Positions 1 through 58,084 of a stretch of 64,000 nucleotides of DNA are shown here, piece after piece. Below the pieces are notes generated by a model that was not told where the DNA came from, did no database searches, and saw only the letters and a list, made by a program, of their open reading frames with translations. The stretch covers positions 1 through 64,000 of the forward strand of contig CAWDVP010000008.1 in NCBI GenBank assembly GCA_963805945.1, read 5' to 3'. The DNA comes from Vulcanimicrobiota bacterium (lineage in GTDB: Bacteria; Vulcanimicrobiota; Vulcanimicrobiia; Eremiobacterales; Eremiobacteraceae). Position 1 is the first letter of the stretch. Each line of letters starts with the position of its first letter. Position numbers and translations under genes: made by a program.

Positions 1-1996
1 TGATCGAGCTGGCGAGATTCTGCTGCAGGTTGAAGTCCAGCGTGAGGTCGCTGTTGGGACTGAAGAGATGCTTGGCCTCGAAGTTATAGCTGGTGAGGCC
101 CGGCGTAGAGCGAACCCGCCGAAGGGGTTGTTGAAGCCGGTGGTCGCGGTCATGAAGTCGAAGCCGATACGAATTCGAACCCGAGACCTGCGTGAACATC
201 GCGTGGACCGCGCCGCCGCTCTCGCTCGGCCCGACGGTGGCGCCGAACACGGGGCCGTTCGTGGCGATGTGCGCGATGCTCGCGCGCAGGCGTGCGTCGT
301 CCCTTGCAAGCTCTGCTCGAAGAGCGTGAAGTTCGAGTCGCCTGAGGAATCGTTGACGTAGCCGAGGTTGAAACGCAGCGTCCCCGCGCGGTTGAGCAGC
401 AGGCTCGCGTGGCCGCCGGTCGTCTCGGCGTGCACGTTTGCGCCGCCGTACTCGTATTGCACCATGACGACCTGCGGGTTGAACCGATCGTCGTATGGCA
501 GCGGGATATTGATGAAGCGCATGAGGCCGGACGTGTAGTCGAGCGTGTAGTCGACGTTGCGCACGAGCGCATCTGGCTGAGCACCGCGCCGGTGCGCTTG
601 TCGAGCACGACCAGTGTGACGACGTCCGAGCCGACGACGATATCGGAATGCAGGATCTGACCCGCGATCGAGAGCCCGGTCGGGTTGAACTGCTGGCGCG
701 CGTACGGCGAAATCGTTGTTCGCGGTGAATCCCATGATGCGGGTCCGGCTCGTGCGTTCGAGCTTGGCGCCGTCGACGAGCAGATGGTAGCCGCCGTCGC
801 TGTCGGGCGAGCCATGGTCGGGCCGGAACTCGCCCCATACGAAGCTGCTCTGGTCGCGGTCGAGGCGCGCGTAGAGATGATCGCGCGAGAGCGCGTCGTC
901 GTACTGGTAGCTCGCGTCGCCGTAGGTCTGGAACGGACGGTCGTACGGGTCCTCGACATAGGGTCCGAGCAGGTTCTGCTGCAGCAGGTTCGCCGTGTCG
1001 TAGGCGACCGTCGCGAGGGTGTCGTTGTTGATGACGCCGGTGCCGAAGACGGCGATGCGTCCCTTGCGGGTCTGCTGGCCGTCGGGGACATCTGGCGGGC
1101 ATGCCGGCGAAACCGGGCACCGCGCCCGCGCCCGCGGTCCCCAGTCCGGTGACGAACGGCTTGCGCAGGTTCGGGTCGATATAGAAGCGCTCGATGTAGA
1201 CGACGTCGGCCGCCGTGACCTGCAGGACGGCCTCGCCGGGCAGCAGGCCCTGGACGAGATGGATCTGATTGAGACCGCCCGCCGCCACCGGCAGTTCCAC
1301 CGCCGACGAGGTGTGGTATTGCACCGGCTGGCCTTGCGACGTCGCGCTCGCGAGAAGAAAGCGCAGATCGCCCGCGACGACGCTCACCTTGATGATCGGC
1401 CCCGGGCATCGCCGGATTGTTCCAGCGGTCCGTCGCGGTGACGCTCAGCGTGTTCATCGTGACGCCGCCGTCCGCATGGAGTGGCCGGTCGAGATTAAAG
1501 ACGAAATGCGCCGGCTTGCCGGGGCCGAAGATCGTGTAGCGCGCCGTCAGGTCCGCGGATATCACCGTGCACCGAGCGGCGTGACCTCGACCGTGTTGGG
1601 ACCCGCGTCGAGCACGACGCCGTAGTACTCATAACGGGTCTCGCCGGTCTTCTTGTTCACCGAGCGCATGCCGATCTGTTTCGCCGAGATGACCTTGCCG
1701 TTGACGCGCAGCTCGACGCCCGCGCCGGAGACCGTCGAGACGAGGATCTTCGTGGCGATGCCGGTCGAGGCGGCGCCTGCGGCCGGCGAGAGCAGCGTCG
1801 CGCTCAGGTTCGAGGTCGCGCTATAGGTGAGGCTGCTCAGGTCGGCGCCGATCGGCGGCGCGGCGGTCGGCTGCGCGGTGGCCGGAGGCGCGCGGCCTGC
1901 GGCGCGGCAAGCGCCGGTGCGCCGAACAGCAGCGCTGCCAGCAACGCGACGACGTATGCGAGCGGTCGAATTCATTCGACCGACGCGCGCGCTCAC
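1..1996 (-). CDS. Large outer-membrane protein of DUF11 clusters (putative beta-barrel/usher-like); runs off the window's left edge; several frameshifts
   Basis: Pieces stitched across frames. GTG start overlaps the upstream stop. Signal-like 'YVVALLAALLFGAPALAA'. Ig-like 'VELRVNGKVI...YEYYGVVLDAGPNTVEV'. Then 'DPYDRPFQTYGDASYQYDDALSRDHLYARLDRDQSSFVWGEF' and 'NVDYTLDYTSGLMRF...VVMVQYEY', motifs I recall from large OM proteins next to TIGR01451 genes. Confidence 0.7.
1959..1982 (+). repeat. REP family B (24 nt) inside the 5' end of the OM protein gene
   Basis: CGAG-CGGTCGAA-TTCA-TTCGACCG; translated GRMNSTA. Confidence 0.8.
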
Positions 1997-4149
1997 TTCG
2001 ACGGCTCCAGCGCGAAGTTGATATCCTGCAGCAAGCCGGTGTCCAGCACGCCGTGGATCAGGCGCAGCATGCTGTGCGGGCTGTCGTAGTTGAGCGGGTT
2101 CGGATAGGGCTGCACGCCGGCGGGCAGCGTCGTCGTGTCGAGCCTGATGACGTGCATGCCCGGCCGCGCCGATGGGAACGAATACCGCCCGTAGCTATCG
2201 GTGATGACGTATTGTCCGTCTTCCAGATAGAGACGGACGCCCGAGACGCCCTTGTCGCCCGGCACGAAGAGCCCGCTGCCGGAGAAGTCGACGAACACGC
2301 GCCCCGTGATCGGGATGGTGAACGAGAACGCGCCACCGCCCAAGATCGCGAACGACGCCTGCGCCTGCGCGCTCAGCGGAGCGCCCTGCGCGTACGCGGT
2401 GAGCGCCGCGACGTTGACTTGTGTCGTGTTGATCTGCGCTTCCGGCAGCACGACCGCGGCGTACACTATCGTGTGGGTGACGCCCGGCGGCAAGGTGCCG
2501 AACGTCCAGGTGAGCGTGCGCCCGTTCACCTGCGGCTCGACCGCCACGCCGTCGACACGCGCCGTGCCGGGTCCGTACGCGACGCCCGGCGGCAGCGTGT
2601 CCACGAGCACCGCGTTGGTGAGCGTCGCGAGCGACGAATTGGTGAACGCGACCGCGAAGACGAGCCGGTCGCCGGTCTGCACCGCCTCGCGATCCACCAC
2701 CTTGGAGATGGTGATCGGGTTGGCGGTGAACATCGGGATGTTGTCGAGCAGGTTGAAGACGTTGGAAAGCGTGACGGGTCCGGCCGTCAGCGTGAAGCCG
2801 CCTGGCGCCGCGAGCAGCTCACCGTCGAGCGCGGTCAAGGTCGCGCTGTAGAGGGTGCCGCTCGGATCCGCCTTGAGCACGATGTCGATGCGGCGGTTGT
2901 TGTAGCTGGGCGCGGTGACCGTGAGGATGTAATGCGCGTTGCCGCCCGCGCCGCCGAATTGGCCAGGCCCGAAAGCGAACGAGAACAGCCCCGACGCCAA
3001 TGTGGTGTACGGGTTGACGTTGGAGTTGTTCGGCGCCACGCCGACGCCGGTGAGGCTGAACGGCGTGATGCTGGGCGGCTGCGTCAGCGTCATGACGGCG
3101 CCGCCGATGGTGTGCGTGCCGCCGCCGTAGCCGTCGAAGACGACGTTGCCCGTGCCGACGAAGACGCTCGCCGGCGACGAGGTGTACGGGCCGAGACCGG
3201 TCGCGGTCACGGTCGCCGTGTTCACGTATGTCGTGCCGAGCGTCGCGTTCGCGTCGACGACAGCATCAAAGGTGATGGTGATCGTCTGCAGGGCGTTGAC
3301 GGTCGGGATCGTCACCGTGAGCGTCTGTCCGACGAGCGTCGCCTGGCCGCCGGCCGGCACGCCGTTGATGAGCACGGATGCAAGCGAAGGATGCAGTCCG
3401 GTCGGCACGACGTCGGTGATGACGACGTTGTTGGCCGCCAGCCCGCCCGAATTGGTGAACGCGATCGAGAAGTTGACGGTGCCGTTCGGCGCGGCTTGCG
3501 TCGACGGCTCGTTGTTCACCAGCTTCTTGATCGAGCTGATGTTCGGGCCGATCACCGCGAGCGCCCAGCGCTGCCCGGTGTCCGATTGCAGCCCGTTGGC
3601 GGTGCCCGTCACCGTCGTCTGCGCTTTGATATTGATGGACCACGCCGTGCCGACGGTGATGGCCGCGGTGTTCACCGTGACGTCCACGAACATCGTGCCG
3701 CCCGGCACCACGCTCGGAGAGACGGTGGAACCGATCGTCACGGGGATGGGCGGGCCGGCCGGCGGCACGACGAAGTTGATCGCGGTGATCGTGCCCGCGC
3801 TCGTCGTGGCCGACTGGATCGTGTATGCGTCGGTGAGGTTGCTCGTGTTGGTGATGATGAAGCGCCGCGTCACCGGCGTGCCGACCGCGTACGAATCGAG
3901 CGCCGGATTCACCGCCGCCTCTTTGGGCGCGACCGTCAGCGACGCGACCGCCTGCACCTGCACGAGCACCGTGTTGGAGTCGGTGGCGTAGGTGGTGCCG
4001 GCGCCGTCCGCGTAGGTCGCGGACGCCGTGTTGCTGATGATCGTGCCGGCGGGCGTCGCGGCAAGGGTAGCGGCAAGCGCCGGCTGGGCCGCCAAAGCGA
4101 CCAAGCCGACGCTGGCCGCCGCCAACGCCGCGATGAACCAACGGAGCAC
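1993..4149 (-). CDS. Secreted DUF11 (TIGR01451) repeat protein with C-terminal SdrD-B-like domain, 718 aa
   Basis: Intact ORF with signal peptide. N-terminal TPAGTIISNTASATY. Two complete DUF11 domains (IKK..ITDVVP..VNTATV; ISK..LVDTLP..VNVAAL). C-terminal GRVFVDFSGSG..GDKGVSGVRLYLEDG..ITDSYGRYSF. Confidence 0.85.
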   Translation of the reverse strand: MLRWFIAALAAASVGLVALAAQPALAATLAATPAGTIISNTASATYADGAGTTYATDSNTVLVQVQAVASLTVAPKEAAVNPALDSYAVGTPVTRRFIITNTSNLTDAYTIQSATTSAGTITAINFVVPPAGPPIPVTIGSTVSPSVVPGGTMFVDVTVNTAAITVGTAWSINIKAQTTVTGTANGLQSDTGQRWALAVIGPNISSIKKLVNNEPSTQAAPNGTVNFSIAFTNSGGLAANNVVITDVVPTGLHPSLASVLINGVPAGGQATLVGQTLTVTIPTVNALQTITITFDAVVDANATLGTTYVNTATVTATGLGPYTSSPASVFVGTGNVVFDGYGGGTHTIGGAVMTLTQPPSITPFSLTGVGVAPNNSNVNPYTTLASGLFSFAFGPGQFGGAGGNAHYILTVTAPSYNNRRIDIVLKADPSGTLYSATLTALDGELLAAPGGFTLTAGPVTLSNVFNLLDNIPMFTANPITISKVVDREAVQTGDRLVFAVAFTNSSLATLTNAVLVDTLPPGVAYGPGTARVDGVAVEPQVNGRTLTWTFGTLPPGVTHTIVYAAVVLPEAQINTTQVNVAALTAYAQGAPLSAQAQASFAILGGGAFSFTIPITGRVFVDFSGSGLFVPGDKGVSGVRLYLEDGQYVITDSYGRYSFPSARPGMHVIRLDTTTLPAGVQPYPNPLNYDSPHSMLRLIHGVLDTGLLQDINFALEPSK

Positions 4150-4174
4150 CGTCAGGCTCCCCTCACCTTCCTCG

Positions 4175-6484
4175 TTACTTCACAGTAACGGCGAAGGTGA
4201 TGACTCCCTGATTCGTGCCGGCGACGCCGCTCGGCACGAGTTGGAACGCCGCGCCGCCGACCGTCGCGGTGAAGCTCGTCGAAGCCGCCGCGTTGCCGGT
4301 GTACGTGGTGCCGCCGGTGGTGTCGGTCGCCGGCGCGTTCAGTCCGTTGGTGAAGGTGGCCCAGTTGTTCGCGCCCGCCGCGCCGTTCTCGGTGATGACG
4401 AGCGTTCCCGCCGCCGTCAGGAGCTGCGCAGAGAGCGGTTCCGTGCCGGTGCCGCCTCCGACCATGATGTTCCGGTAGTCGACCGTGTAGGTGAGGATCG
4501 CACCCGGGCATGCGAACTGAGTCGCCGGCAACGGCGGCTGCGTGAACACACCGCAGGTGTTGTTGGTGATGGTGATGCCCTTGGTGAGGGCGATGAAGCT
4601 CGAGTAGAGCTCGTTGTGCGTCGTGTTCGTGCACGTCGGGCACGCGCCGCCGCCGATGCTCGCCGCGAGGATGTTGCCGTCGTAGCGTTTCAGCGACTGC
4701 GTCGGATTCGGCGAACTGTACACCGCCCAGTAGCACAGCGTCGCGCCGGATGTTACCGCGACGTTGTTGGCGACCGAAGTGGCGCCCGACCCTGCTCCGC
4801 CCAAGGCGGTGCCGCTCGGCGCGGTGCACGTGCCGCTGTCCTGGAACAGCTGGACGGTGAACCCGACCGGTGCGGTCGCGGTGATGGTGTACGTGTCGGC
4901 GACGTTGCCCGCGTTCATCACCTGGTTCGGCACGTTGATGCCGGACACGACGGCGGTGAAGTTGTTGCCGTTCGGCGTGCCCGGCACCGTGCCGCTGTTG
5001 ATGATGGTGAAGGCGGACTGCGTGAAGCTCACCGCGGTGAAGTCGTTGTTGTTATTCACCGCGACGACGCCGTCGTAGCTGCCGGTCGCGCCCGGCAGGC
5101 CCTTCGGCCCGTTGAGCACGGAGTAGTTCGACGGCATCGCCGAGCAGACGCTCTGCGAGGCGCCGCTGGGCGCGGCCAGCGTCGTCGAGTTGTTGATGGC
5201 GTTGTTGATCGCGGTGACCGCGGCAGGCGTGCCGTCGCTGATCAGCGTCACGATCGTCGGACCGATGACCTGCGGCTGCGTCACGAGGTAGTTGGCGTTG
5301 CCGCCGATCACCCCGTTGGCGATGTTGCTGATCGCGCAGGCGTTGCCTGAGCCCGCACCCGTCGGGCCGTTGACCGCGAAGGTCAACGTCACCGCTGCGG
5401 CAGGCACGTTACCCGCGGACGACCCGGCGTGCGCGTTGAGCGCCACCGCACCGCCCGAGATGTAGACGCCGATCCACAGCGCGCCGGCCGAACTCGTCGA
5501 CCAGCCGCTGGCGCCGCTTGCCACGTTCGAGTACACGATCGTGGCGCTCGCGGTGACCGGGAAGCCGTTCGCGGCGCTCGTCGCCACCGACGGCACGCCG
5601 TTGAGCGTGAGCGGCACCGCGGCGAACGTCGGGATCTTGTCGGCGATGAGCACGCCGGGGCTCGTGAAGGGCGCGCCTGCGCCAAGACCCTGCACGCTCG
5701 TGAGCATGCGGGCCGGCGAAGCGCCGCCGTTGTTACCGGCGACCGTATAGGTCACGACCGGCGCCGCCGACGTGCCGCTGACCACCGCTGACTTCTGCAG
5801 GTCGAGCCGCGCGTCGGCGATGATCGAGTCGGTGTAGCTGTTGGAGACGTTCGGCGAGGTCGTGTCGACCAATCCGGCCGGGTTCGGCTGATCGGCGGCC
5901 TTGTAGAGGATGTTGGCGGTGAGCGTCGTCGTGATCGTGCCTGGCGTCGCCGCACCGGTGATGCAGTAGTTGATGGTGATGGTCGCATAGCCCGCCGGCG
6001 CGATGAGCGCCGAGGCCGCGAGATTCGCCTGCAGCTGCGCGAACGTCAAACCGCTCGTCGTCGCGCCGCCGTTGTACGAGATCGAGTAACTCGTGGTGGC
6101 GACGCTGGCGGAGTCACTCCCGCCGAATACCGGTGCGCTCGGCAATTGGAAGCGTCCAAGGCCGTTGCCGGTATTGGTGAGCGTGTAGACGTCAGCGAGG
6201 CACGAGTTCGGCACGCCCGTGCCGGTGCCGGCCGCCGCGCCGTTATTCGTGGTCACGGTGAGCGAGGGCGCGTTCTGCACCTCGACGACGACCGTGTTGG
6301 ATTGCGTCGTATAGCTGACGCCGTTGGTGTCGGTATAGGTCGCCGACGCGGTGTTCGAGATCAGCGTGCCGGCGGCTGTCGCGGCGGCTGCGGGATGGCC
6401 CGTCAGCACGATCGCGCAACAGACGAACGCCGCGGCAAGCAACTCCGCCGGGCGGATGACGTACGTGAACCAAGATCGGTTCAT
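4175..6484 (-). CDS. Secreted DUF11/Ig-like repeat protein, putative major fibre subunit (start 6484 or 6517)
   Basis: Intact ORF with AAGGA SD before ATG 6484 and a signal peptide. N-terminal TAAGTLISNTASATY. Internal DUF11 (LQK..IADKIP..ISNIA). C-terminal truncated DUF11 ending ITFAVTVK. Confidence 0.85.
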   Translation of the reverse strand: MNRSWFTYVIRPAELLAAAFVCCAIVLTGHPAAAATAAGTLISNTASATYTDTNGVSYTTQSNTVVVEVQNAPSLTVTTNNGAAAGTGTGVPNSCLADVYTLTNTGNGLGRFQLPSAPVFGGSDSASVATTSYSISYNGGATTSGLTFAQLQANLAASALIAPAGYATITINYCITGAATPGTITTTLTANILYKAADQPNPAGLVDTTSPNVSNSYTDSIIADARLDLQKSAVVSGTSAAPVVTYTVAGNNGGASPARMLTSVQGLGAGAPFTSPGVLIADKIPTFAAVPLTLNGVPSVATSAANGFPVTASATIVYSNVASGASGWSTSSAGALWIGVYISGGAVALNAHAGSSAGNVPAAAVTLTFAVNGPTGAGSGNACAISNIANGVIGGNANYLVTQPQVIGPTIVTLISDGTPAAVTAINNAINNSTTLAAPSGASQSVCSAMPSNYSVLNGPKGLPGATGSYDGVVAVNNNNDFTAVSFTQSAFTIINSGTVPGTPNGNNFTAVVSGINVPNQVMNAGNVADTYTITATAPVGFTVQLFQDSGTCTAPSGTALGGAGSGATSVANNVAVTSGATLCYWAVYSSPNPTQSLKRYDGNILAASIGGGACPTCTNTTHNELYSSFIALTKGITITNNTCGVFTQPPLPATQFACPGAILTYTVDYRNIMVGGGTGTEPLSAQLLTAAGTLVITENGAAGANNWATFTNGLNAPATDTTGGTTYTGNAAASTSFTATVGGAAFQLVPSGVAGTNQGVITFAVTVK

Positions 6485-6513
6485 TGTGATGTTCCTTATC
6501 CTTTCGCGTGCGA

Positions 6514-7005
6514 TCATTTCACCCGGACCTCATAAAGAAACCGGACGCTCCCCTTCGGCGCCAACGGCTTTTCGGCGATCCACCGGATGTTGGTATATGA
6601 AGACGGGTCCGCTGGTTTCGTCACCGGGCCCGTCGAGGTCTGAACCGTCACCACGGGTTTGGACGACCACGTCTTGCCGCCGTCCAGCGAGAACTCCACG
6701 TTCCCTGCCGTGGTGCTTGCCGACCCCGCGATATACGCGGTGCCTGCGGGTATCTTATCCGACGGCGTGAAGTGCAGCGCCGGATCGGAACCTTTGTTGG
6801 TGCCGACGATCGTCCAGCGGACGACTTCGCCGGCCTTGAGCTTGACTGCGGGATCCAGCGGGATGAGCTTCTCGCCACCCCCGCTGACCTTGACGACCGT
6901 CACCCCGCTGAGATGGAGGCTGACATCCGGTTTCGCATATGCGGTCAGCGTGGTCAGTATCAGTGCCGCTGCGCAGGCGAATATCCCGGCGCTCACTAGG
7001 CGCAT
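6514..7005 (-). CDS. Small secreted single-DUF11-domain protein, about 163 aa
   Basis: AAGGA SD before ATG 7005. Signal peptide MRLVSAGIFACAAALILTTLTAYA. AGEVVRWTIVGTNKG..SDKIPAGTAYIAGSA..EFSLDGGKTW..TNIRW..LAPKGSVRFLYEVRVK. Confidence 0.85.
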   Translation of the reverse strand: MRLVSAGIFACAAALILTTLTAYAKPDVSLHLSGVTVVKVSGGGEKLIPLDPAVKLKAGEVVRWTIVGTNKGSDPALHFTPSDKIPAGTAYIAGSASTTAGNVEFSLDGGKTWSSKPVVTVQTSTGPVTKPADPSSYTNIRWIAEKPLAPKGSVRFLYEVRVK

Positions 7006-7180
7006 AGAAATTTCCTTCTTCTTATTAAGCAGGCCACCGAGGTGGCCTAGAAGTGTGACTCGGGCGGCTCCCGTTTTGTAAGCCCTGCCCCTTGTATTCA
7101 TATCGTCAAAAGTATGACCGCCAGCACGGCGAACTGCGATGTTTGTTGGCTTTACGCGACTTTTGTGGACATGGTCCGCT

Positions 7181-7205
7181 AGGGTCCCTGGGGACGCCGT
7201 CAGAA
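7181..7205 (+). promoter_or_regulatory. Candidate alternative-sigma promoter AGGG-N18-GAA upstream of thrS
   Basis: The same bipartite motif recurs upstream of purM, pepA, purB, the 43538/43633 divergent pair and the ABC operon. Confidence 0.4.
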
Positions 7206-7218
7206 GGCGGGGACGGAT

Positions 7219-8958
7219 ATGGAAAATTCCAGCCCCAAAGGTGACCTCGGTCACATGCGCCATACGGCCGCTCACCTGCTCGCCCATGCGGTGGTCGATC
7301 TCTATGGCGATGACGTGAAGCTGGCGATAGGTCCCGCCATCGAGAACGGCTTCTACTACGATTTCTCAAGGGCACGCCGTTCGTGCCTGAGGATCTGCCG
7401 CGCATCGAAACACGGATGCGCGAGCTCATCAAAGCGGATGTCGCGATGACCGGCCGCCCGATCACCAGGCCCGAAGCGGAGGCCTACTACCGAAAACGCG
7501 AGCAGCCGTTCAAACTCGATATCCTCGCCGGCATTCCCGAGGGCGAACCGCTCTCGATGTACACGATCGGCGATTTCACCGACCTCTGCCGCGGCGGGCA
7601 TCTGGAGCGCAGCGGCGAGATCGGCGCGATCAAGCTGTTGTCGATCGCAGGCGCCTATTGGCGCGGCGACGAGCACAATCCGATGCTGCAGCGCATCTAC
7701 GGCACGGCGTTCCCGTCGCAGGCAGAGCTCGACGAGCATCTTGCGCAGCTCGAAGAGGCGGAGCGAGCGCGATCACCGCCGCCTCGGCAAGGAGCTCGAG
7801 CTCTTCTCCATCGAGGAAGAGGCTGGCCCCGGTCTCATCTTCTGGCATCCCGCGGGCGGGCGCGTGCGCGAGGTCATCGAGGACTTCATCCAAGGCGAGC
7901 TGCGACGAGCGCGGCTACGAGCCGGTGTACACGCCGCACGTGGTGCACGAGGGTCTGTACGAGACCTCGGGCCATCTGCAGTCCTTCGTCGAGAAATGTT
8001 CGGGCCGCTCGAGCTCGACGAGCAGCGCTATCGCGTCAAGCCGATGAACTGCCCCGGGCACATCCTCATCTACAAGTCGCGCCCGCGCTCGTATCGCGAC
8101 CTGCCGCTGCGGCTGGCCGAATTCGGCACCGTATATCGCTACGAGCGCTCCGGCACGCTGCACGGACTGCTGCGCGTCCGCATGATCACGATGGACGACG
8201 CGCATCTCTTCTGCACCCCCGACCAACTGCAAGAGGAGTTCGAGAACACGGTCGACGCGGCGCTGACGGTCCTCAAGGCATTCCGCTTCGACGACTACAA
8301 GATGTTCGTCTCCACCAAGCCCGCGAACGCGCTCGGTGATGACGCCTTGTGGGAACGCGCGACAAAGGCGATCATCGCCGCCTGCGATCACGCCGGTCTG
8401 AAGTACGAGATGGATGAGGGCGGCGGCGCCTTCTACGGCCCGAAGCTCGACATCAAGGTCCGTGACGCCATCGGCCGCGAGTGGCAGCTGTCGACGGTGC
8501 AGGTCGACTTCAACCTGCCCGAGCGCTTCGGGCTCACCTATCGCGGCGCGGACGGCGCGGAGCACCGCCCGGTGATGATCCATCGCGCGCTGTGCGGCTC
8601 GCTCGAGCGCTTCTTCGGCGTGCTCATCGAGCACTACGCCGGCGCGTTCCCCGCGTGGCTCGCGCCGGTGCAAGCGGTGCTCGTGCCCATCTCCGAGGAC
8701 CAGCTCGCGTACGCGGACTCGGTCGCGGCCTCGCTGCGTTCGGCAGGCTTCCGCATCGAGGTGGACACCTCGAACGAACGACTTCAGAAGAAGATCCGCA
8801 ATCAGCAGATGCGCAAGGTGCCCTACATGCTCGTGGTCGGCAAGAGCGAAGTGGCTGATGCCAAGGTCAACGTCCGTTCACGCTCTGGTGAACAGGAGAC
8901 CATGACGGCGGAGGCGTTCGCGGTCAAGCTCGCTGAGGAAGTCCGCACCAAATCCTAG
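7219..8958 (+). CDS. thrS: Threonine--tRNA ligase (short form lacking N-terminal TGS domain); several apparent frameshifts
   Basis: [82 protein letters not shown] and PVMIHRA are spread over three frames. Confidence 0.96.
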
Positions 8959-8959
8959 T

Positions 8960-8985
8960 GTAGGGGCCGATCTTTAGATCGGCTC
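8960..8985 (+). repeat. REP family A (26 nt, GTAG plus palindrome), single copy
   Basis: GTAGG-GGCCGATC-TTTA-GATCGGCT-C between the convergent thrS and adhesin stops. Confidence 0.85.
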
Positions 8986-8987
8986 TT

Positions 8988-11900
8988 CTATTGCACCGTC
9001 ACCGTCAGGAACACGGTGCCCGACGCACCCGGGTTGAGCAAGCCGGTGAACGTCCAAGTGACGATCCCGCCGGACGGCCCCGATGGGGTGCAGGCCGTCA
9101 ACGCCGCGCCCAGCGGTCCGCAAGTGGCGCTCACAAACGTGGTGTTGGGCGGCACCGGATCCGTCACCGCGAAGTTCGTCTCCGGGAACACGCTGGTGTT
9201 GGTATAGGTGATCGTGTAGAGCAGCGTATCCCCAGGGCTTGCGCTGCCGGTGGTCGCGTTCGAGCTGCCGGTGGTCACGTTGCGCACGACCTTGGCCAGC
9301 GACATCGAGACATGGCCGATGGTGATCTTCGCGGACGCCGGCAAGAGATTGGTCAGCCCGCCCGGCGTGACGATGGCGCCGGCAGGTATCGTGTTGGTGA
9401 AGGTACCGAACTGCGTCGGCGTCGCGGTCGTGATGTACACGTAGACGACGCACGAGGCGCTCGCAGGAATCGTGAAGCTCGTGACGTTGAACGACGCGCC
9501 GCCCGGCACGCCGACGATCGTCGCGCCGCAGCCCGGCGGCGCGCCGCCCTGCGGCGGCGGTTGCGTGGTGATGTCCTTGATGACGATGGCGCTCGGCAGC
9601 GTGTCGGTCACCGTCGTGATGGGCTGCGCGACGGCGGACGGATTCTGGAAGGTGAGCGCGACCCAGGTCGTGCCGCTGGGCGGAATCGCCGGCGCTAAGA
9701 ACGCTTTCGTCAGGCCGATGTTCGCCGACGACGTGAGCGTCGCGCTTGCGCTGAACGAGTTCGTCGCGCCCGAGGTCGCGGTGATCGATCCGGCTGGGAT
9801 GGTGTTGGTCAGATTTCCCTCGGTGACCGCGGTGACGTCCACGGCGATCGTGCATGGCTGCAGCGCTCCGCCTGCAGTACGCGAGGGCAACGTGGCGCCG
9901 CTCAGGACCACCTGACCGCTGCCTGCGGTTGCGACCAGCGTTGCGTTCGCGCAGGTCGTGCTGGCGTTGGGGATCGCGGCGACGGTCATGCCGGCTGGCA
10001 ACGTATCGGTGAGCCCCACACCCGTCTCGTTGAAGACGATGCCGCCGGTATAGGCTTGCGCGTTGTTCGAGAGCGTGATCAGCAGATGCGAGGTGCCGGC
10101 GGCGGGGATGGTGTTGGGCGTGAAGGTTTTGTTGACGTTGATCTGCGACGGCGCCACGAACACGACGTTGTTCGCGCCGTTCAACGTCTGGAGATTGTCC
10201 TCGGTGCTCTGGACGGTCATATGGCCGGCGGTGTAGGTGCCGGCGACCGCCGAGATCACGAAGTACGAGATCGTGCACGTGTCTTTGAAGACGAAGTCGG
10301 GCGACGTCGCGGTGTAGGACGTGCCGCCCGCCCCAGGCGTGAACGTGAGCACAGAGCCTTTCGTGCACGTATAGGTGAACTGCGGCGCGGCGGCCAGGAC
10401 CACATTCGTGCCCGCTACGTTGAAGTTGAAGACCGCGACGAGGTTGTGGTCGTCCGTGCCGGCCGTCGATATGATCCGGTCGCTCACCGAGATCGTGCCC
10501 TTGATCGGCGCGACGCCGACCGTGGTCGCGCCGCTGCTCGAGAAGTAGTGGGTGAGGGTCAGCCCGTGGTTGACGGTGAGATTGGCGTTGACGTTGGCGG
10601 CGTTGGTGATGGTCACATTGGCCGAGGTGACCACGGAAAAGCCGCCCGGCGGGATGCTGTTCGTGAGCGTCACCGGTAATGGCGCCGCGACGGTCGGCGT
10701 CACAGGCACGCTGACCGTGCAGGTCCTGGCTCCCGCGGCGATGGTCCCATTCGTCACTGCGATCGACGTGCCGCCGATCGGCGCGATGATCGTCGGTGCG
10801 CCGCAATTGGCGTTCGCCGTCACCGCGGCGGCGACGATCAGACCCGCGGGCAGGTTGTCGGTGATGGTGACGGCGTGCAGCGCCAGTCCGCCCGTCGGAT
10901 TGATGACGTTGATGTTGAGCGTCGAATTGTTGGCGCGCGCCACGCTGGCCGGGCTGAACGCTTTGGTGAACGTCACGGTCGGCGTCGGCGTCGGTCCGAC
11001 GGTGAGCACCGCAGAGGTGTTGCTGTTCGCTTTGAGCCCCTGGTCGTTGGTCACCGTGCTGCCGGTGACGGTGTTCGTCGGCGTCTGCGACGGCGGTGCG
11101 GCAGGCACGAGCACGTCGAACGTGATCTTGCAAGTTGCGCCGTTCACTCCCAAGCTCGGCGCCGCCGGCAAGGTGAGGCCGGAGACGACGACGGTTGACG
11201 TGCCGGCGATCGTGCCCGCCGGTCCGCCGCAGGAGTTGGCGAAGTTCGGGACCGCTGCGAGCAAGAGACCGCCCGGCAACACGTCTGAGAAGCCGAAGTT
11301 GGTCAGGGGGATGAGGTCGCGGTTGATCGCCGAGATGGTGATGGTCACCGTCGCGCCGGGGACCGTCGTCGCCGGCGTGAAGCTCTTGACGATCGTCGGC
11401 GTGATCGGGAAGTAGGTCACGTCGGCGGTGGTGCCCGCGTTGTTCATCACGCCTTGCGCGCTGGTGATCGCCTGCGAGGCCACGGTGAGCCGCTGGCTGC
11501 GCTGTGAATTCGAGAACTGGCCGTTGACGCTCACCGTCACCTGCACCGTGCAGGAGCCATTGGCCGCGATGGTCGCTCCGGTGACGCTGAACGTCGGCGG
11601 GGATACCGCGTTGTTGAAGGTCGCGACGCCGCCGCAGGAATCGGTGACGCTGACGATGTGGAGCGTCGCGCCGCCGACCGGCGACGAGAGCGAACCGGGG
11701 ATGGTGACGTTGGTGATCGGCAGCGCGTTCGGATTGGTCACCGTGACGATGAAGACCGGTGATGCGGTCTCCGGCACCTGGTTTGGCGTGACGGTGATCG
11801 TGACGCCGAGGTTCCCCGGGTTGGTGACTTGGAGCGTCGCGGAGGCGGGCGATGAGTTCGTGCCGGCACTGGTGACGAGCGCGCCTGCCGGAATCGTGTT

Positions 11901-12302
11901 GGTGAAGTTCTGCGCCGAGTTGCCGAACACCGAGACGGTCACCGTGCACGCGCCTGGTGTGAACGCGTCCGGCGCCTGCGGGATGACGCCGCCGTTCAGC
12001 GTGATGCTGTTGGCGGTGGTGTTCACCACGCCCCCGGCGCACGTGGTCGTCGGCGTCACCGTTCCGTCGACCGTGAGGCCGGCAGGCAAGTTGTCCGTCA
12101 TGCTCGTGACGGTGACGCTCGTCGTCGTGTCGTTGTTGAGCAGCGTGATGGTGAGCGTCGAATCGGCGGCGAAATTGACGTTCGACGGATTGAATGCCTT
12201 GTTGATGCCGATCGTTCCGGCGGAACCCGCCGGCGACCACACGAACAGCGCCACCAGTACAGCCAGGGCGCAGCCCAGCGCCACGCGCGAGATCGCACGC
12301 AT
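8988..12302 (-). CDS. Large secreted Ig-like repeat adhesin (7 repeats plus C-terminal truncated DUF11 domain)
   Basis: Intact ORF with signal peptide from ATG 12302. Repeats of K-x-F-x-P..TD-x-LP..C..C..TNTIP. Ends SLAK..PGDTLLYTITYTN..VTDPVP..LNPGASGTVFLTVTVQ. Confidence 0.85.
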   Translation of the reverse strand: MRAISRVALGCALAVLVALFVWSPAGSAGTIGINKAFNPSNVNFAADSTLTITLLNNDTTTSVTVTSMTDNLPAGLTVDGTVTPTTTCAGGVVNTTANSITLNGGVIPQAPDAFTPGACTVTVSVFGNSAQNFTNTIPAGALVTSAGTNSSPASATLQVTNPGNLGVTITVTPNQVPETASPVFIVTVTNPNALPITNVTIPGSLSSPVGGATLHIVSVTDSCGGVATFNNAVSPPTFSVTGATIAANGSCTVQVTVSVNGQFSNSQRSQRLTVASQAITSAQGVMNNAGTTADVTYFPITPTIVKSFTPATTVPGATVTITISAINRDLIPLTNFGFSDVLPGGLLLAAVPNFANSCGGPAGTIAGTSTVVVSGLTLPAAPSLGVNGATCKITFDVLVPAAPPSQTPTNTVTGSTVTNDQGLKANSNTSAVLTVGPTPTPTVTFTKAFSPASVARANNSTLNINVINPTGGLALHAVTITDNLPAGLIVAAAVTANANCGAPTIIAPIGGTSIAVTNGTIAAGARTCTVSVPVTPTVAAPLPVTLTNSIPPGGFSVVTSANVTITNAANVNANLTVNHGLTLTHYFSSSGATTVGVAPIKGTISVSDRIISTAGTDDHNLVAVFNFNVAGTNVVLAAAPQFTYTCTKGSVLTFTPGAGGTSYTATSPDFVFKDTCTISYFVISAVAGTYTAGHMTVQSTEDNLQTLNGANNVVFVAPSQINVNKTFTPNTIPAAGTSHLLITLSNNAQAYTGGIVFNETGVGLTDTLPAGMTVAAIPNASTTCANATLVATAGSGQVVLSGATLPSRTAGGALQPCTIAVDVTAVTEGNLTNTIPAGSITATSGATNSFSASATLTSSANIGLTKAFLAPAIPPSGTTWVALTFQNPSAVAQPITTVTDTLPSAIVIKDITTQPPPQGGAPPGCGATIVGVPGGASFNVTSFTIPASASCVVYVYITTATPTQFGTFTNTIPAGAIVTPGGLTNLLPASAKITIGHVSMSLAKVVRNVTTGSSNATTGSASPGDTLLYTITYTNTSVFPETNFAVTDPVPPNTTFVSATCGPLGAALTACTPSGPSGGIVTWTFTGLLNPGASGTVFLTVTVQ

Positions 12303-12516
12303 GGCTAGCGCCGCCCCGGTATCAAGAGATCGTGAGCTCCACCCTCGTAAGACTCGGATCCGAACCCCCTGTGACGCGCGCGAAAGCCAGGTCGGAGACA
12401 ATGTCGCCGTACTATAGATATGCTCGGCAGGAACGACCTCACAGTTGAGCGCCGATCCTCATCAGGCTCTAGGGTAACGCCCATCGGGCGTGCAAGCGCC
12501 GGGAACGGAGGGTTCT

Positions 12517-18119: not shown

Positions 18120-19124
18120 GAGAGGATGACGGAGGGGCCGCACGGATGCAGCGGCTCGATGTCGCCGATCTCGATCGCGCCGCGCATCGCGGCGATCGCC
18201 TTGTCCGCGTCCGCCGGCGCCACGATCGCGCAAAAACCGATGCCCATGTTGAAGGTCCGGAAGGCGACGTCGCGCTCGAGCGCGGCCTCGCGCGCGACGA
18301 GCGCCACGATGTCGGGGACGGCCCAGCGCTGCGGATGCAGGCGCGCGGCGACGCCGGCGGGCAGCGCCCGCGGCAGGTTATCGAGCAGTCCGCCGCCGGT
18401 GATGTGCGCCATCGCCTTCACCGCGACGCCGGCGGCCTGCGCCGCTCGGATCGGCGCCGAGATAGCTCGGATGGACCGCCAGGAGCGCGTCGGCGATCGT
18501 CGCCGCGCCGAGGCGTTCGCTCCAGCGCGCCGCCGGCAACGTGTGCCGCACGAGTGAATACCCGTTCGTGTGGAATCCGTTGGAGGGCAGGCCGATGATG
18601 CGGTCGCCGACCGCGACCCGCGTCACGTCGATGAGCATGTCGCGCTCGACCGCGCCGACGATCGTGCCCGCGAGATCGAAATGCGCGGGCTGATACAACC
18701 CCGGCATCTCCGCAGTCTCGCCACCGAGCAGCGCCATGCCGTTCTCGGCGCACGCCGAGCCGATGCCGCCGACGATCGCCGCCGCCATCGCTGGGTCCAG
18801 CGTCCCGACCGCGAGGTAGTCCAAGAAGAACAACGGGCCTGCGTTGAGGCACAGGATATCATTGATGCAGTGGTTGACGAGGTCGCGGCCGATGGTGTCG
18901 TAGCGCCGCAGCTCGGCGGCGACCAGCAGCTTCGTGCCCACGCCGTCCGTGCTGGCGACGAGCACCGGCTCGCGGAAGCCGCTCAGCGCGAAGCAGCCGC
19001 CGAAACCCCCGATGCCATCGAGCACGCGGGGATCCCTGCGCTTCGGCAGCACGTCCCGGTAACGGGCCACGGCTTCGTTGCCCGCATCGATGTTGACACC
19101 TGCTCGAGCGTATGCGTCGGTCAC
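18116..19124 (-). CDS. purM: AIR synthetase; frameshift near 18450
   Basis: YARAGVNIDAGN, GGFGG, STDGVGTKL, NDILC, GGETAEMPG, HTNGYSLVR, AHITGGGL, RTFNMGIGF. Confidence 0.96.
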
Positions 19125-20993: not shown

Positions 20994-23900
20994 ATGGGTT
21001 CTCACCGGTTGGGTAAGGGCGCGGTCTTCGCGAGCGCAATCCTCGCGGCGGCCGCGCTGCTCTTCTCCGCCATCCCGGCCTCGGCCGACGACACCGGCAA
21101 CATCATCATCACGGTGACGGATGCCGCGACGCATGCGCCGCTCGGACTCGCCCGCGTGCTGCTCGACGGCCCCGTCATCACCAACGAGCTGTCCGGCCAG
21201 GACGGCAAGGTCTCGTTCACCGACGTGCCGAGCGGCATCTACCGAGCGCGCGTGGGCAAAAACGGCTATAGCCAGGTGACGTCCGCGCAGTTCGAGGTGC
21301 TCGAGGGGCGGCAGGTGACGGTGACGGTCGAACTCGTCAAGCCCGCGGTCAAGACCATCGGCAGCATCACTGTGCGCTCTTCGGCGACCATCAGCGAGAG
21401 CAGCGTCAACGACAGCACCGCTGTCCGCAAGCTCTCGGACACGCTCGCCGACGCGCTCGGAAAGCTCTCCGGCGTCAGCGTCGCCACCGACCCGAGCGGC
21501 TCGAGCGACAGCCAGGTGACGATCTCGCTCGAGGGCCACGATCCCTCGCAGACGAGCCTCACGCTCGACGGCGTGCCGCTCAACGCGCCGGGAGTGGCCG
21601 GCGATCTCCAGTCCATCAACACCGATCTCTTCAGCGCGGGCTCCGCCAACTTCGGGCCTAACGCGGGCTCGCTCGGCGGCTCCGTCAATTTCACCTCGAT
21701 CCAGCCCACGCTGAGCTGGCAAGGCAAGTTCACCACCTCCGTCGGTTCGTTCGGCAAAGCGGCGACGATCGTGTCCGCGTCCGGCACCGCCGGAGCGGTG
21801 GGCATCGCCTTCACGCACTCGATCCGCGGCGGCGACAACCCGATCACCGGCCTGGAATACCTCGACACGAGCGGTTTGGACTACATCCATAACGGCGCCG
21901 CGCAATCCGGCGGCGACCTCTTCAAGATCCGCACGCCCCTCGGCGCCGATCAGACGCTTTCGGCGACGTACGTCTCGACCAACAACTACAACAACCTGGT
22001 GTGCACGCTGTTCACGGGCCCGCTGCCCTGCGGCTACGGTCCCGGTAACTACAGCGATCGGCATTACTCCCTCGCGACGCTCACCGACACGGCGCTCGCC
22101 GGCATGGTCGCGCTGCAGTTCTCGCTCTTCGGCGGCACGTCGACCTTCAATCGCGACCTGCTCGACCGTTACGTCGCAGGCATCCCCGCACCGTTCGGCA
22201 CGGTGAGCGACAGCCGGACGAGCGGGGCGTCGCTGAACGCGACCCTACCGTCGCGCGAGCGTCACACCATCTCGTTCCAGGCGACGACGACCGATGCCAA
22301 GCTCACGACGATCGGGGTGATCTCGACGAGCTCGCCGTTCTCGAACTCGTCGAGCACGTCGAACTACAGCACGATCTCGATGAGCGACAAGATCCATTCG
22401 AGCAGCACGCTGACGCTCGGCGCCCGCCTCGGTATGAGCTTCTCGCCGCAGACCTCGAACTCGGTGATCGGCGGCGCGAGCGCCGTCTACACTCCGACCG
22501 CGTGGGATTCCGTGACCGGCAGCGTCGATATCGGCGGCGCCGGGGTGGGTCTCTCGCGCATCTTCCCGCTCAGCGATCCCGCGTCGCTGCGCTTCGACTG
22601 CAACGCCGGCAACGGCTACGGCGCGGGGCCGGGCGACTCGCCGGGGCCGACGAGTTCGACCTCGGAGCGGCTGACGTGGCAGCACCGCTTCAAGACGGGT
22701 CAGTTCTCGGCACAGCTCTACAGCCAAGTGCAGAACGACGTGCTGCTAAACACCTACGTCAACGGCTCGGTGCTGCCGCCGGGCTACTTGCCGCCCGGCT
22801 ATCTCGCCGCCGCGCAGCTCGTCTATCAGTCCAGCGGCGGCTGCGGCACCGCGCTGCCGTTCGGGCCGACGAATCTCTACATCAATCAGCCGGTGGCGAA
22901 CGTGCAGCGGCTCTACCAAGGCCTGCAGTTGACGGGCGGTTTCCGCGTCGGCAACGGCTTGGCGGTCGAACCGTACTACGACATCCAGAAAGCCGTCGCC
23001 AACACGAGCGACCCGCGGCTGACCGATCCATATTCGTTCGTGATCTCCGGCGCGCAGAGCGCGGGCGTGCCGCTTCAGCGCGGCGGCCTGACGCTCGACT
23101 ACAAGGCGCCGCACTCGGCGATCGAGTGGCTCGCCAACGGGACCTACGTCTCGGGTAACAACGCGCAGAATCTGCCCGGATATGTCACCGCCGACGCGGG
23201 CGTCGCGATCAACTTCAACAAGGGCACGCTGACCCTGGCGGGGACGAATCTGTTCAACAAGTACGGCTACTACTTCGCCTCGCCGGCCAATGCCGTGCCG
23301 CAGGAGACGGTAGGCGGCGAGCTGGTGCCAACGGTGGCGCGCCCGCTGTCACCGCGACAATACTCAGTCACGTACACCGTGAGGTTCGGCAACGTGCGGC
23401 AGAGCAGCTACACGCCGCCGCTGCTCGCCGATGCCGGCGCAGGGCCGAGCGGAACGCGCGGAGGCGGCGGACCGAATGGGGTTCCGGGCGGCGGGTTCGC
23501 GGCGCTACCGCCTTTGGCGAATACACCGCCGGAGCATCCACTGGATCCGGACACCACGCGCCAAGCCTGCACCGCCGACGCGGCGAAAAGCGTGAAGCCT
23601 TTCCTCGAACAGGTCAAGGCATACGTCGCGGCCGTCGAGGCCGCCAAGGGCGCGGATGGCTACCCTGCGTCTGCTCCCGCCAACGCGCCGGCGGTCGACG
23701 GCGTCAACATCGCCTACCATAAGACGCCGACGTCGTTCGCGCTCGTCTTCACGCCGACGAAGGCGGGTTCGCTCCGCAACTTCCTCGCCTGCGTGTCGCT
23801 GCACCTCGGCACGGCGGACGAGGCGAAGGCGCTCGGCCTGTACGTCCCGCCGACGAGCGCGTTCAGCCGCTTGCCGCTCGTCTACTCGCCGGAAGGCGGG

Positions 23901-30829: not shown

Positions 30830-31961
30830 CAGGTGCAGACGCTTCCAAGCGTGCCGGCGTCGCGCGCCATGACGACTTCCTTCGCGATGCGTTCACCGAC
30901 AGAGATCTCGCGACCCCAACGGTAGGCGGAATATGGTGTGTACTTCGTGCCGGGCGAACCCGGGATGCGCAGGCTGACGTCGTACACCACGAACGACTTC
31001 GGCGGCCCCGCTGCGATGACGCACTGCAGCGCGAACGGCCCGATGATGCCCGGCGGCCGCGCGGCGCGCGCCGCCGCGACGAAACGCTCGCCCATGTCGA
31101 AGGCCTGCTCGAGCATGGATTCGGTGAGCGTCGCCGCGATGTGGCCCGCCTCTTCCATCGAGGGCATGAACGCGCCGCCGAGCGACGCCTGCTCGATCGC
31201 CAGCAGATTCCTGGCCCCGTCGACGTCGGTCTGACGCCGCGTGTCCGTGCCGAGCAGCTCGAGCTCGCCGGACAGCGGCGAATAGAAGAAATTCAGATTG
31301 ATGCTCGGGCCGAGCACGTACTCCTCGAGCACCGCGCCCGCGAGGCCTTGCTCGCTGATCACACCCGCGGCGAGGAGCGTCTGGGAACGGCGTTTGTACT
31401 GCTCCGGCGAAGCGGCGACGAAGAAGGCGCGCTCGAATGTCACCTTGGCGTGCGGCGCCTTGATCAGCGTCAGGCCCGCGATCTCGTCGGGCGAGCGGAG
31501 CCGCCGCGGAAAACGGATGCCGGCCGCTTCAAGCAGCTTGTACTGGTTGTCGGGCTCGTCGCGCTCCTCCGCGCGCAGCAGGCGGCGCGAGCCGAAGAAC
31601 GGCACGCGCATGCCGCGTTCGATCTCGTCGTAGCTGTGGCGCTGGCGTGCGTACACCTCGAATGATCGGTTCGGCACGAAGATCGCGTTGCGCTCGAGCA
31701 GCTCTTTCTGGACGTCGGCGCCAGGATGTCGGCGAAGTGCTCCACCAGCAGCGTCTCGTCGACGCAGCCGGTGCCATCGGGTCGCGCGGCGTAATGTTTG
31801 GTATAGGTGCGCTCGCGGCCGCGCATGCCGACGACGAGATTGCGCAGGCCCTCGCGCTTCGCGCCGAGGCAGACGTCGAGCGCGGAATGGCTGCCGATGC
31901 AGCAGAGGGTGAGCGAGGCGAGGTCGTAACCGGCGAGGACGTCCGCGACGCCCTCACTCAA
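30829..31961 (-). CDS. purP: PurP-like ATP-grasp protein, second paralog (DUF1246/DUF1297); frameshift near 31715
   Basis: [78 protein letters not shown]. Confidence 0.85.
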
Positions 31962-33079: not shown

Positions 33080-33119
33080 TATTGCGTGTTCTCCTTCGCT
33101 CCGGCGGCCCGAATTCCCC

Positions 33120-41136: not shown

Positions 41137-41137
41137 C

Positions 41138-58059: not shown

Positions 58060-58084
58060 GATCTACATCCTCGGTTCTTAGAGC

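Follow-up and report, generated by a model that had tools for sequence, protein, structure and literature searches.

The window analysed here is a stretch of 64,000 nucleotides from a Vulcanimicrobiota bacterium (assembly GCA_963805945.1, contig CAWDVP010000008.1), with a G+C content of ~63-70% and with relatives that carry the names Candidatus Eremiobacteraeota, Vulcanimicrobiota or Baltobacteraceae. Within positions 1-12400, a list of open reading frames (ORFs) with their translations gives five minus-strand genes (Table 1), which encode four proteins termed P1, P2, P3 and P4 and a large outer-membrane (OM) protein. The subject of this report is the division of one immunoglobulin-like (Ig-like) domain, DUF11, among the proteins of this cluster. 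A domain that lacks its last beta-hairpin is called an acceptor, and a hairpin standing alone at a mature N-terminus is called a donor. The five genes look co-transcribed. The stop of P2 and the start of P3 overlap in an ATGA, and the stop of P4 and the start of the large OM gene overlap in a GTGA. A promoter and terminator scan returned 0 promoter-like sites and 12 terminator-like sites vs 7.2 +/- 2.6 expected, nothing notable. A hydrophobic leader and an A-x-A-like site were read by eye at the beginning of P1, P2, P3 and P4.

Table 1. Coordinates of the cluster genes and of the domain halves in the window (aa, amino acids; AF2, AlphaFold2 model; HMM, hidden Markov model; L001-L003, loci of relatives).
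Feature	Position	Strand	Description	Basis
P1	8988..12302	-	acceptor-only, putative tip/stalk protein	ORF and Pfam; collinear in L001-L003
P2	6514..7005	-	163 aa from MRLVSAG; one truncated DUF11-like domain	Pfam, hhalign
P3	4175..6517	-	780 aa; putative shaft subunit	ORF, relatives, AF2
P4	1993..4149	-	718 aa; donor-only, putative base/terminator	ORF, Pfam, NCBIfam
Large OM protein gene	1..1996	-	N-terminal ~650 codons; frame-switched; runs off window	
P1 C-terminal acceptor domain	8991..9266	-	Lys in ..SLAKVV.., Asp in ..VTDPVP.., no Asn hairpin	
P3 donor hairpin	6275..6382	-	residues 46-81; invariant Asn55	HMM and conservation
P3 acceptor domain	4178..4612	-	residues 636-780; Lys646, Glu710; ends ITFAVTVK	relatives, hhalign
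P4 donor hairpin	3952..4065	-	residues 29-66; Asn40	HMM and conservation
P4 complete unsplit isopeptide domain	3205..3537	-	Lys209, Asp246, Asn310; internal reference for the split domains	TIGR04226

DUF11 has been renamed CLIPPER on the basis of a crystal structure (PDB 9IFR) with an intramolecular isopeptide bond between Lys715 and Asn806 and an accompanying Asp748, and DUF7933 and DUF7925 are predicted isopeptide domains according to the accessible text of the same paper (PMC12617251). That text covers intramolecular bonds only, and none of the words “split”, “truncated” and “strand complementation” appears in the part available.

A previous sequence-only reading of this DNA had claimed that three secreted proteins of the cluster stop right before the last two strands of a DUF11 domain, and that two others begin with exactly the missing piece. 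Both observations hold: P3 stops at 4175 (..ITFAVTVK*), P2 at 6514 (..FLYEVRVK*) and P1 at 8988 (..VFLTVTVQ*), and the strings quoted for the starts of P3 and P4 were found in the translations, where the mature proteins read TAAGTLISNTASATYTD..SNTVVVEVQ and TPAGTIISNTASATYAD..SNTVLVQVQ, respectively, directly after the hydrophobic leader. A complete-domain string cited alongside, ITFDAVVDANATLGTTYVNTATVTA, is located in P4. The D-x-x-P motif ascribed to these domains is present in P1, P2 and P4 but not in P3, which has T-E-N-G instead. The parts list drawn up in that reading also agrees with ours, namely a donor-only P4, a P3 with donor plus acceptor, acceptor-only P1 and P2, and a large OM protein.

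P1, whose ORF is open to a TTG at 12401 and which likely starts at the ATG at 12302 to give 1104 aa, consists of a signal peptide, seven DUF7933 Ig-like repeats (E 3.5e-85, 7 stretches) and a terminal truncated DUF11 domain, as found by Pfam; this last domain (residues 1049-1136 of 1137) covers positions 8-84 of the 114 in the DUF11 profile at 50.9 bits. P2 covers positions 12-82 of 114 (26.5 bits vs a cut-off of 24.6), and its relatives end in ..YEVRVK. The truncation of P1 and P2 is thus visible in curated profiles, and that of P3 had to be shown by other means because P3 has no Pfam match. P3 is laid out as signal peptide, donor hairpin, Ig-like domains and C-terminal acceptor domain; its 100 relatives are all from Eremiobacterota and unnamed or “hypothetical”, and the same terminal strand ends 47/48 aligned P3 homologues. 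In P4 the signal peptide and donor hairpin are followed by complete isopeptide domains and an SdrD_B-like C-terminal domain. Two DUF11 stretches (59.0 bits), with a full-length match over 2-96 of 114, were found by Pfam (cut-off 24.6), and the NCBIfam model TIGR04226, “isopeptide-forming domain-containing fimbrial protein”, matches over 3-121 of 123 at 65.2 bits (cut-off 30). A search of PDB sequences by phmmer with P4 and with P1 gave no match. The P4 family profile hit the LPXTG pilins 8kb2_A/8kcl_A (E 6.1e-11) and the CLIPPER structure 9ifr_A (E 6.7e-5), the P2 profile reached only 9ifr_A at E 0.14, and the P3 family profile gave nothing useful among PDB sequences. A similarity search for P2 and the OM protein led to clusters that are all unnamed or named after DUF11, and these serve as leads only.

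The place at which the domain is cut was determined against complete domains. By hhalign, P2 falls on template columns 5-104 of 140 of the complete P4 domain (probability 96%, E 4.6e-9), and the donors of P3 and P4 fall on columns 106-131 and 104-126, with Asn on Asn; as the donor matches are weak, independent evidence for the position of the split was sought. Of the 621 six-frame ORFs of the window, a donor HMM built from relatives of P3 matches P3 (E 5.2e-22), P4 (E 1.6e-14) and no other, and this specificity, together with the same ends and starts in relatives, indicates that the pattern is more than chance. The bare donor peptides matched 0 families in Pfam. A donor profile of 42 columns from 81 sequences, searched against 1.84 billion representative proteins, matched 1188 proteins at E <= 0.001, of which 49 reach E <= 1e-10. 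Among the best 150 matches, 139 have the motif only in their first 100 residues, 5 are mixed, and 6 are giants of 2633-5081 aa with at least three internal donor copies each. The giant P0110 (3372 aa) has 19 DUF11 stretches by Pfam and repeats of 124 residues that run ..EFSK.. (Lys) ..KITDTIP.. (Asp) ..ITITVEVKV, and then GTADKTLLRNTATLYYSDANGNPY....VVVT. In such giant unsplit adhesins each repeat reads ..VEVKV followed by GT...LLRNTATLYYSDANGNPY...VVVT, and the window proteins are cut exactly between both pieces. Because the acceptors end where the first piece ends and the donors are the second piece, the giant adhesins act as a Rosetta stone for the split. One protein considered as an unsplit junction or fusion, P0102 (937 aa), was rejected, since it is actually two adjacent paralogous donor-bearing genes read through, with a second signal peptide and a near-identical donor at residues 690-753.

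Eight of the repeats of P0110, a tandem DUF11 protein unrelated to the cluster, were used to build a complete-domain HMM, with Lys at position 8, Asp at 41 and Asn at 98 of its 124 positions. On this scale P1 residues 1046-1136 of 1137 occupy positions 7-86 (independent E-value, iE, 1.1e-11), the P3 donor (residues 44-80) positions 87-123 (iE 1.4e-4), the P4 donor positions 67-122 (iE 7.7e-4) and a cyanobacterial donor positions 85-123, and the C-terminal domains of four distant relatives (P0163, P0241, P0367 and P0462) stop at 86-87, no more than two residues from their C-termini. The domain is split at one precise place, and its halves lie on different proteins.

The residues of the isopeptide triad are distributed over the two halves. 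The full triad occurs within one domain only in the internal domains of P4; P1 and P3 have the Lys and the acid at their C-terminal ends, and the Asn is on the N-terminus of P3 and P4. The sequence-only reading had expected a donor Asn and an acceptor Lys that are conserved together in homologues, and this is what three families show. The Eremiobacterota family of P3 (n=88) has the donor Asn in 88, the acceptor Lys in 85 and the acceptor Glu/Asp in 88 members; a cyanobacterial family (n=118) has them in 118, 116 and 118; and in a family from Balneolota, Bacteroidota, Pseudomonadota and Verrucomicrobiota (n=120) the donor Asn, acceptor Lys and acceptor Asp are present in all 120, with the same terminal residue in 114/120. 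In the P4 family the donor Asn is found in 47/48 members and the internal complete domain has its Lys in 46/48, Asp in 48/48 and Asn in 48/48. P2 differs. At the aligned columns its family has Lys in 18/49 and Asp/Glu in 10/49, with both present in the P2 of the window, so that P2 in general cannot be a covalent acceptor, as most of its relatives are without Lys and acid. The small acceptor-only “cap or chaperone” proposed earlier is therefore borne out in its fold and truncation but not in its Lys/acid chemistry, and the P2 family appears, from these alignments, to keep the open fold but not the ligation chemistry.

The gene order was followed in relatives fetched with the P3 alignment, where 84/114 pattern matches were confirmed and 80 Eremiobacterota loci kept. 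The order P2-P3-P4-OM is found in 63/80 loci, and the other 17 are mostly short or cut contigs, with three ORF-caller artefacts. Three loci, L001-L003, are collinear with the window, including P1 and a threonyl-tRNA synthetase-like (ThrRS-like) gene. In 37/80 loci the OM gene is followed by another ORF that resembles P3 or P1; 35 donor-less ORFs (>=450 aa) in this position were aligned, nearly all of which end at the same truncated strand, and Lys is present in 34/34 alignable sequences of these 35. The N-terminal region of these acceptor-only proteins, for example those at L014 17839-20280 and L054 14417-17341, is similar to the N-terminal domain of AgmC, a gliding protein of Myxococcus (NF047640, E 3.5e-30; the 105 bits stay under the cut-off of 275), and glycine-rich stretches come after it.

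HMMs built from Eremiobacterota sequences only recognise all four families on named plasmids of other phyla. Synechococcus sp. NIES-970 has P2 (1.9e-32), P3 (8.9e-30), P4 (8.8e-37) and OM (6e-77) homologues; Thermus thermophilus HB8 carries them on pTT27 in the same gene order as in the window (P2 3.5e-18, P3 9.6e-31, P4 1.3e-43, OM 5.1e-17); and Deinococcus aquaticus has P3 (1.6e-25), P4 (2.8e-63) and OM (1.9e-13), with no P2 match. In two Pseudomonadota, P4 and the OM protein form a single polypeptide (P4::OM), namely on Acinetobacter haemolyticus p4 (P4 E 8.9e-58, OM E 2.4e-57) and on Pacificitalea manganoxidans pDY25-D (P4 E 3.9e-31, OM E 3.2e-49). These fusions are ~2000 aa long and begin with signal peptide and donor, the P4 match covering about the first 880 and the OM match about the last 1000 residues, and a P2 homologue precedes each of them. 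In the fusion, the donor-only subunit and the OM protein are physically one molecule, which supports the “base” that P4 had been called from sequence, and the minimal system comprises P2, P3 and P4::OM. On the Acinetobacter plasmid (L084) the P3 homologue at 8484-10687 is annotated as four short coding sequences and is apparently disrupted; the P2 homologue and the fusion are intact, and an OmpA-family gene follows the fusion. Altogether, homologous clusters are found in Thermus, Deinococcus, cyanobacteria, Pseudomonadota and Eremiobacterota, and two related families have more than 800 members each at E <= 1e-10. The expectation that similar clusters exist in other diderms under “conserved repeat domain” names proved right; the public names are uninformative, namely “hypothetical”, “DUF11 domain-containing”, “conserved repeat domain-containing”, “beta strand repeat-containing” and “DUF7925 domain-containing”.

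Intact relatives of the large OM protein are 1057-1311 aa long, and two of these orthologues matched 0 families in Pfam and NCBIfam, the usher family PF00577 included; the family profile had no match among PDB sequences. The AF2 model of the L001 orthologue has a mean predicted local distance difference test (pLDDT) score of 73.4 and a predicted template modelling (pTM) score of 0.48. In it, confident Ig-like domains at 40-250 and a low-confidence linker at 253-349 precede ~32 long strands (8-16 residues) at 484-1047 with pLDDT mostly 65-92, and the protein has 20 amphipathic stretches after residue 600. Foldseek against the PDB matched this model to LptD barrels (E ~3e-7, ~600 aligned columns) and to the Ig domains of intimin D00-D0 and invasin (TMt 0.40); no usher fold was among the ~45 matches listed. 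From the model, the OM protein is predicted to form a large barrel in the outer membrane and to carry Ig domains in the periplasm or at the surface; it would belong to no described family and would not be an usher.

Mature P3, folded with 88 relatives, gave a model that is almost all beta, with a mean pLDDT of 92.3 and a pTM of 0.77. Among PDB structures it best matches pilins and the stalks of multi-Ig adhesins, namely PrgB, the CfaB fusion trimer and antigen I/II C123, with a TM of <=0.28 that is low because of the multi-domain geometry. Residues 1-36 of the mature protein form four short strands with block pLDDT of 84, 72, 77 and 89, which means that the donor is structured in the model and no floppy tail. 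Self-complementation is common in monomer models of donor-strand pilins.

From this material, we consider it fairly probable that the cluster encodes a modular surface fibre in which subunits become linked when a split DUF11/CLIPPER (CnaA-like) isopeptide domain is reconstituted in trans. The acceptor, i.e., the C-terminal domain of P1 and of P3, would be an Ig-like sandwich with the Lys on its first strand and a catalytic Asp/Glu but without the last beta-hairpin, and the donor, i.e., the mature N-terminus of P3 and of P4, would be the missing hairpin with its Asn. After Sec export, the hairpin of one subunit would enter the open domain of the next more distal subunit, and the completed domain would form the Lys-Asn isopeptide autocatalytically, locking both chains. 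The order would run from the tip (P1, or the acceptor-only proteins encoded after the OM gene) over (P3)n to P4 and the barrel; this polarity comes from the parts list, as each N-terminal donor would point to the more distal subunit just as in chaperone-usher pili, and P4, having no acceptor, would end the chain. The large dedicated barrel, coupled and in some phyla fused to P4, would anchor or export the fibre. For P2 we can only speculate that it binds donor hairpins reversibly and non-covalently as a cap, an initiator or an “inverse” chaperone; it could cap the distal donor in minimal systems, or prevent premature or cis ligation in the periplasm. Growth at the base and growth at the tip would both be compatible with this scheme. 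The data show the domain split and its exact position, the co-conserved triad, the synteny, the P4::OM fusions and a predicted barrel; that hairpins insert in trans, that a covalent bond forms and that P3 polymerises is what we infer, and so are the polarity, the location at the surface and the function given to P2.

Several observations count against this reading. P3, its acceptor included, has no Pfam match, and its acceptor aligns weakly with the complete P4 domain by hhalign (columns 8-104 of 140, probability 20%, E 1.1e-3). The similarity of the donors to the tail of the complete domain is weak as well (hhalign E 0.0085-0.032, probability 1.6-4.7%), and a tail HMM from P4's own complete domain missed the donors. 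Among 42 full-length representatives with an N-terminal donor, the complete-domain HMM placed the C-terminal end in only 3; of the other 39, 4 have P4-like ends and 35 went undetected, most of which end by eye in a similar x-F-x-V-x-V-K strand, and the HMM is insensitive to the diverged P3-type acceptor. Three of the 88 P3 relatives have the Asn yet no Lys, and mutual information between donor and acceptor columns shows no enrichment over controls (effective number of sequences, Neff, 48). In the P3 model the N-terminal strands have a pLDDT of 72-89 vs mostly >90 elsewhere, and as modelled their docking site could be the C-terminal domain of the same P3 chain or the adjacent domain, or they may have no specific site. 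The barrel resembles LptD only loosely (TMt 0.26-0.28), in a model of mean pLDDT 73. Lastly, the OM gene is broken here, with at least eight frame switches in 2 kb (1-1996), and this copy may be non-functional if the frameshifts are real.

Some of these points would suit another explanation in which the cluster proteins do not interact in trans, being independent secreted Ig-repeat proteins whose C-terminal domains are shorter but complete variants and whose hairpin packs in cis, either against a neighbouring domain or, in a closed ring, against the C-terminal domain of the same protein. The confident P3 monomer with structured N-terminal strands, the weak similarity between donor and tail, and the missing covariation signal agree with it. 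Against it, an incomplete domain is missing from P4, which has a donor, and a donor is missing from P1, P2 and the tip proteins, which have an incomplete domain; such unpaired halves on separate proteins make sense only in trans. Several phyla also share the position at which the domain is cut, and we regard this explanation as very unlikely. Complementation by the donor strand could also take place with no covalent bond, the Lys, Asp and Asn being kept for folding or other reasons. P2 is an example of a truncated fold kept mostly without Lys or acid, so that acceptors of this family might well work non-covalently, and in Clostridium perfringens BsaA the N35A variant still gave oligomers resistant to sodium dodecyl sulfate, as reported in the available text (bioRxiv 10.1101/2024.11.04.621531). 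A triad that is near-invariant over three families of <=30-40% identity, and that is the same as in the CLIPPER structure 9IFR with Lys715, Asp748 and Asn806 (PMC12617251, accessible text), speaks for the bond and makes this variant highly unlikely in our opinion.

The alternative to which we give most weight, while still holding it unlikely, is a defined split adhesin, in which tip, P3 adaptor and P4/OM anchor occur singly and are each joined once into a long stalk of fixed length, as a large fibrillar adhesin that arrives in pieces, with no P3 homopolymer. It accounts for the same split-domain evidence, the unsplit relatives are indeed giant single-chain DUF11 adhesins, the P3 donor might enter the acceptor of the tip only, and minimal clusters hold only P2, P3 and P4::OM. 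What argues for a polymer is that P3 carries both halves in all three families, as a repeating unit needs, and that P3 and P4 have very similar donors (E 1.6e-14 for the P4 donor with the P3-family HMM), so that an acceptor taking one should take the other. The chain might instead be an envelope tether, periplasmic or linking the outer membrane to another layer, with the barrel merely as its anchor. The P4::OM fusion may have either topology, an OmpA-family gene follows the fusion in Acinetobacter, and many hosts such as Thermus, Deinococcus and cyanobacteria have complex envelopes; the tip proteins, on the other hand, have large adhesin-like N-terminal regions (seven DUF7933 in P1, and AgmC_N-like regions, below cut-off, in relatives), and the closest structural relatives are surface adhesins and pilins, which leaves the tether as the most improbable of these proposals.

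The fibre proposed here would share features with several known systems. As in chaperone-usher pili (type 1, P and CFA/I), an N-terminal extension would complete the Ig fold of the next subunit, here by sequence logic only, and there would be an acceptor-only tip, a shaft with both elements, a non-accepting terminator and, as predicted for the OM protein, a large dedicated barrel in the operon. There is no homology to these pili: the OM orthologues have no usher match, and their predicted barrel fold best matches LptD. The donor is a two-strand hairpin with a reactive Asn, and the link is predicted to be covalent. The small accessory protein P2 would offer a groove and donates no strand; no PapD-like chaperone family was matched by P1-P4 in Pfam or NCBIfam, where the only small protein is P2 with its truncated DUF11 acceptor fold. 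With the sortase-assembled pili of Gram-positive bacteria the system has in common the strings of CnaA/CnaB-type isopeptide domains and the expected covalent links between subunits, but the bond would form inside a reconstituted domain by autocatalytic Lys-Asn chemistry and not by transpeptidation of a sorting signal, and the hosts are diderm. The sequence-only reading had seen no sortase in the window, and indeed the sortase motif TLxTC is absent from the 621 six-frame ORFs, no cluster protein has an LPxTG (the motif occurs only in two arginine-rich off-frame ORFs, neither of them usable), and P1-P3 end in a beta-strand.

Head-to-tail donor-strand complementation combined with a spontaneous intermolecular isopeptide bond is established for the threads of Sulfolobus acidocaldarius (PMC9715654, accessible text), a “donor-strand exchange and lock” with an N-E-K triad has been proposed with mutational support for C. 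perfringens BsaA (bioRxiv 10.1101/2024.11.04.621531, accessible text), and archaeal tafi are described in the available text as using donor-strand exchange without covalent locking (PMC11821415). Threads and BsaA differ from the present proteins in that they have thread-subunit and TasA-like folds vs DUF11/CLIPPER here, in that their hosts are an archaeon or a monoderm without an OM component, and in that their subunits are single domains vs multi-domain proteins of 700-1100 aa here. No Pfam match to a TasA/camelysin-like fold or to a SipW-type signal peptidase was obtained in P1-P4 or in 36 other ORFs of the window. Unsplit DUF11/CLIPPER adhesins (9IFR and giant tandem repeats) have the same domain and the same Lys/Asp/Asn triad, with the last hairpin of each repeat corresponding to the donor (PMC12617251, accessible text), but their bond is intramolecular within one chain, and in the window the parts of the domain are encoded by separate genes and have a signal peptide between them.

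SpyTag/SpyCatcher is an engineered split CnaB2 domain whose two chains reassemble and ligate spontaneously, the tag carrying the Asp. The present case is alike in being a split isopeptide domain that would ligate two chains, and it would be natural, CnaA-like and with the Asn on the donor hairpin.

As for novelty, no prior description of a split-CLIPPER fibre was found in open-access papers and bioRxiv, and the available part of a comprehensive review of October 2026 mentions no sortase-free covalent diderm fibre. Two candidates were rejected as prior descriptions, as far as their accessible texts go: the cyanobacterial tubular pilus (PMC12397347) has a different fold, and the Litorilinea grappling-hook DUF11 protein (bioRxiv 10.1101/2025.08.19.671072) is a single unsplit giant chain. 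The principle of donor strand plus intermolecular isopeptide and the CLIPPER domain itself are already known. What appears to be new is a CnaA-like isopeptide domain naturally divided between genes, its occurrence in diderms together with a dedicated putative OM barrel and a presumably non-reactive acceptor protein, and the broad distribution. More tentatively, and with slightly less confidence than doubt, we suggest a phylum-spanning class of diderm fibres, “split-CLIPPER pili”, defined by hairpin complementation, a Lys-Asn lock, an LptD-sized barrel with a coupled or fused terminator, and P2 as “inverse chaperone”, whose non-reactive groove would keep donor hairpins until a reactive acceptor takes them over; this class, so far not recognised, would occur in T. 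thermophilus HB8, Deinococcus, many cyanobacteria, Acinetobacter and Eremiobacterota.

The state of the copy in the window is best judged together with its neighbourhood. The ThrRS-like gene between P1 and P2 is on the plus strand at 7383-8958 and is broken over two frames (7383..8339 and 7741..8958); its orthologue in L001 is intact (7544-9316, minus strand, 590 aa) and its position is conserved in L001-L003. The gene seems to begin at the editing domain, without a TGS domain, and it lies outside the fibre system. Patches of frame switches were noted at 1-2000, 7000-8050, 33000-36400, 41000-43500, 46400-47500 and 58000-59200. purM at 18378-19124 has its N-terminal part only, purL is in pieces (34935-35369 and 36035-37336), adenylosuccinate lyase at 38597-39076 has only its C-terminus, and a dihydrodipicolinate synthase (DHDPS) match spans 214/289 profile positions. 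Because several housekeeping genes elsewhere in the window are also fragmentary, patchy indel errors in the assembly consensus are likelier than gene decay. P1, P3 and P4 (7.9 kb) are free of frame breaks, so that the OM gene may yet be a true pseudogene.

Among other genes, a 228-aa ORF divergent from P1 (12490-13176, plus strand) has one hydrophobic segment and repeated beta-rich units with no Pfam match. Tandem minus-strand genes at 30829-31677 and 31958-33466 have DUF1246/DUF1297 (PurP-like) domains and lie inside a purine-biosynthesis stretch, the former without most of DUF1246. A 1118-aa TonB-dependent-receptor-like protein at 20994-24350 on the plus strand, with CarboxypepD_reg and TonB-dependent-receptor Plug domains, is an outer-membrane receptor and as such supports a diderm envelope of the host.

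If the proposed fibre exists, it would provide natural orthogonal protein-ligation pairs with hairpin tags. The presence of the system in tractable organisms, namely Thermus thermophilus HB8 (on plasmid pTT27), Nostoc/Anabaena and Synechococcus, makes it directly testable. A confirmed fibre would also give a function to thousands of proteins now called “conserved repeat domain”, “beta strand repeat-containing” or “DUF7925”, as well as to a family of outer-membrane proteins of >1000 aa that has no family assignment, and it would mean that diderm bacteria have a sortase-free route to covalent surface fibres, one that is absent from current pilus classifications.

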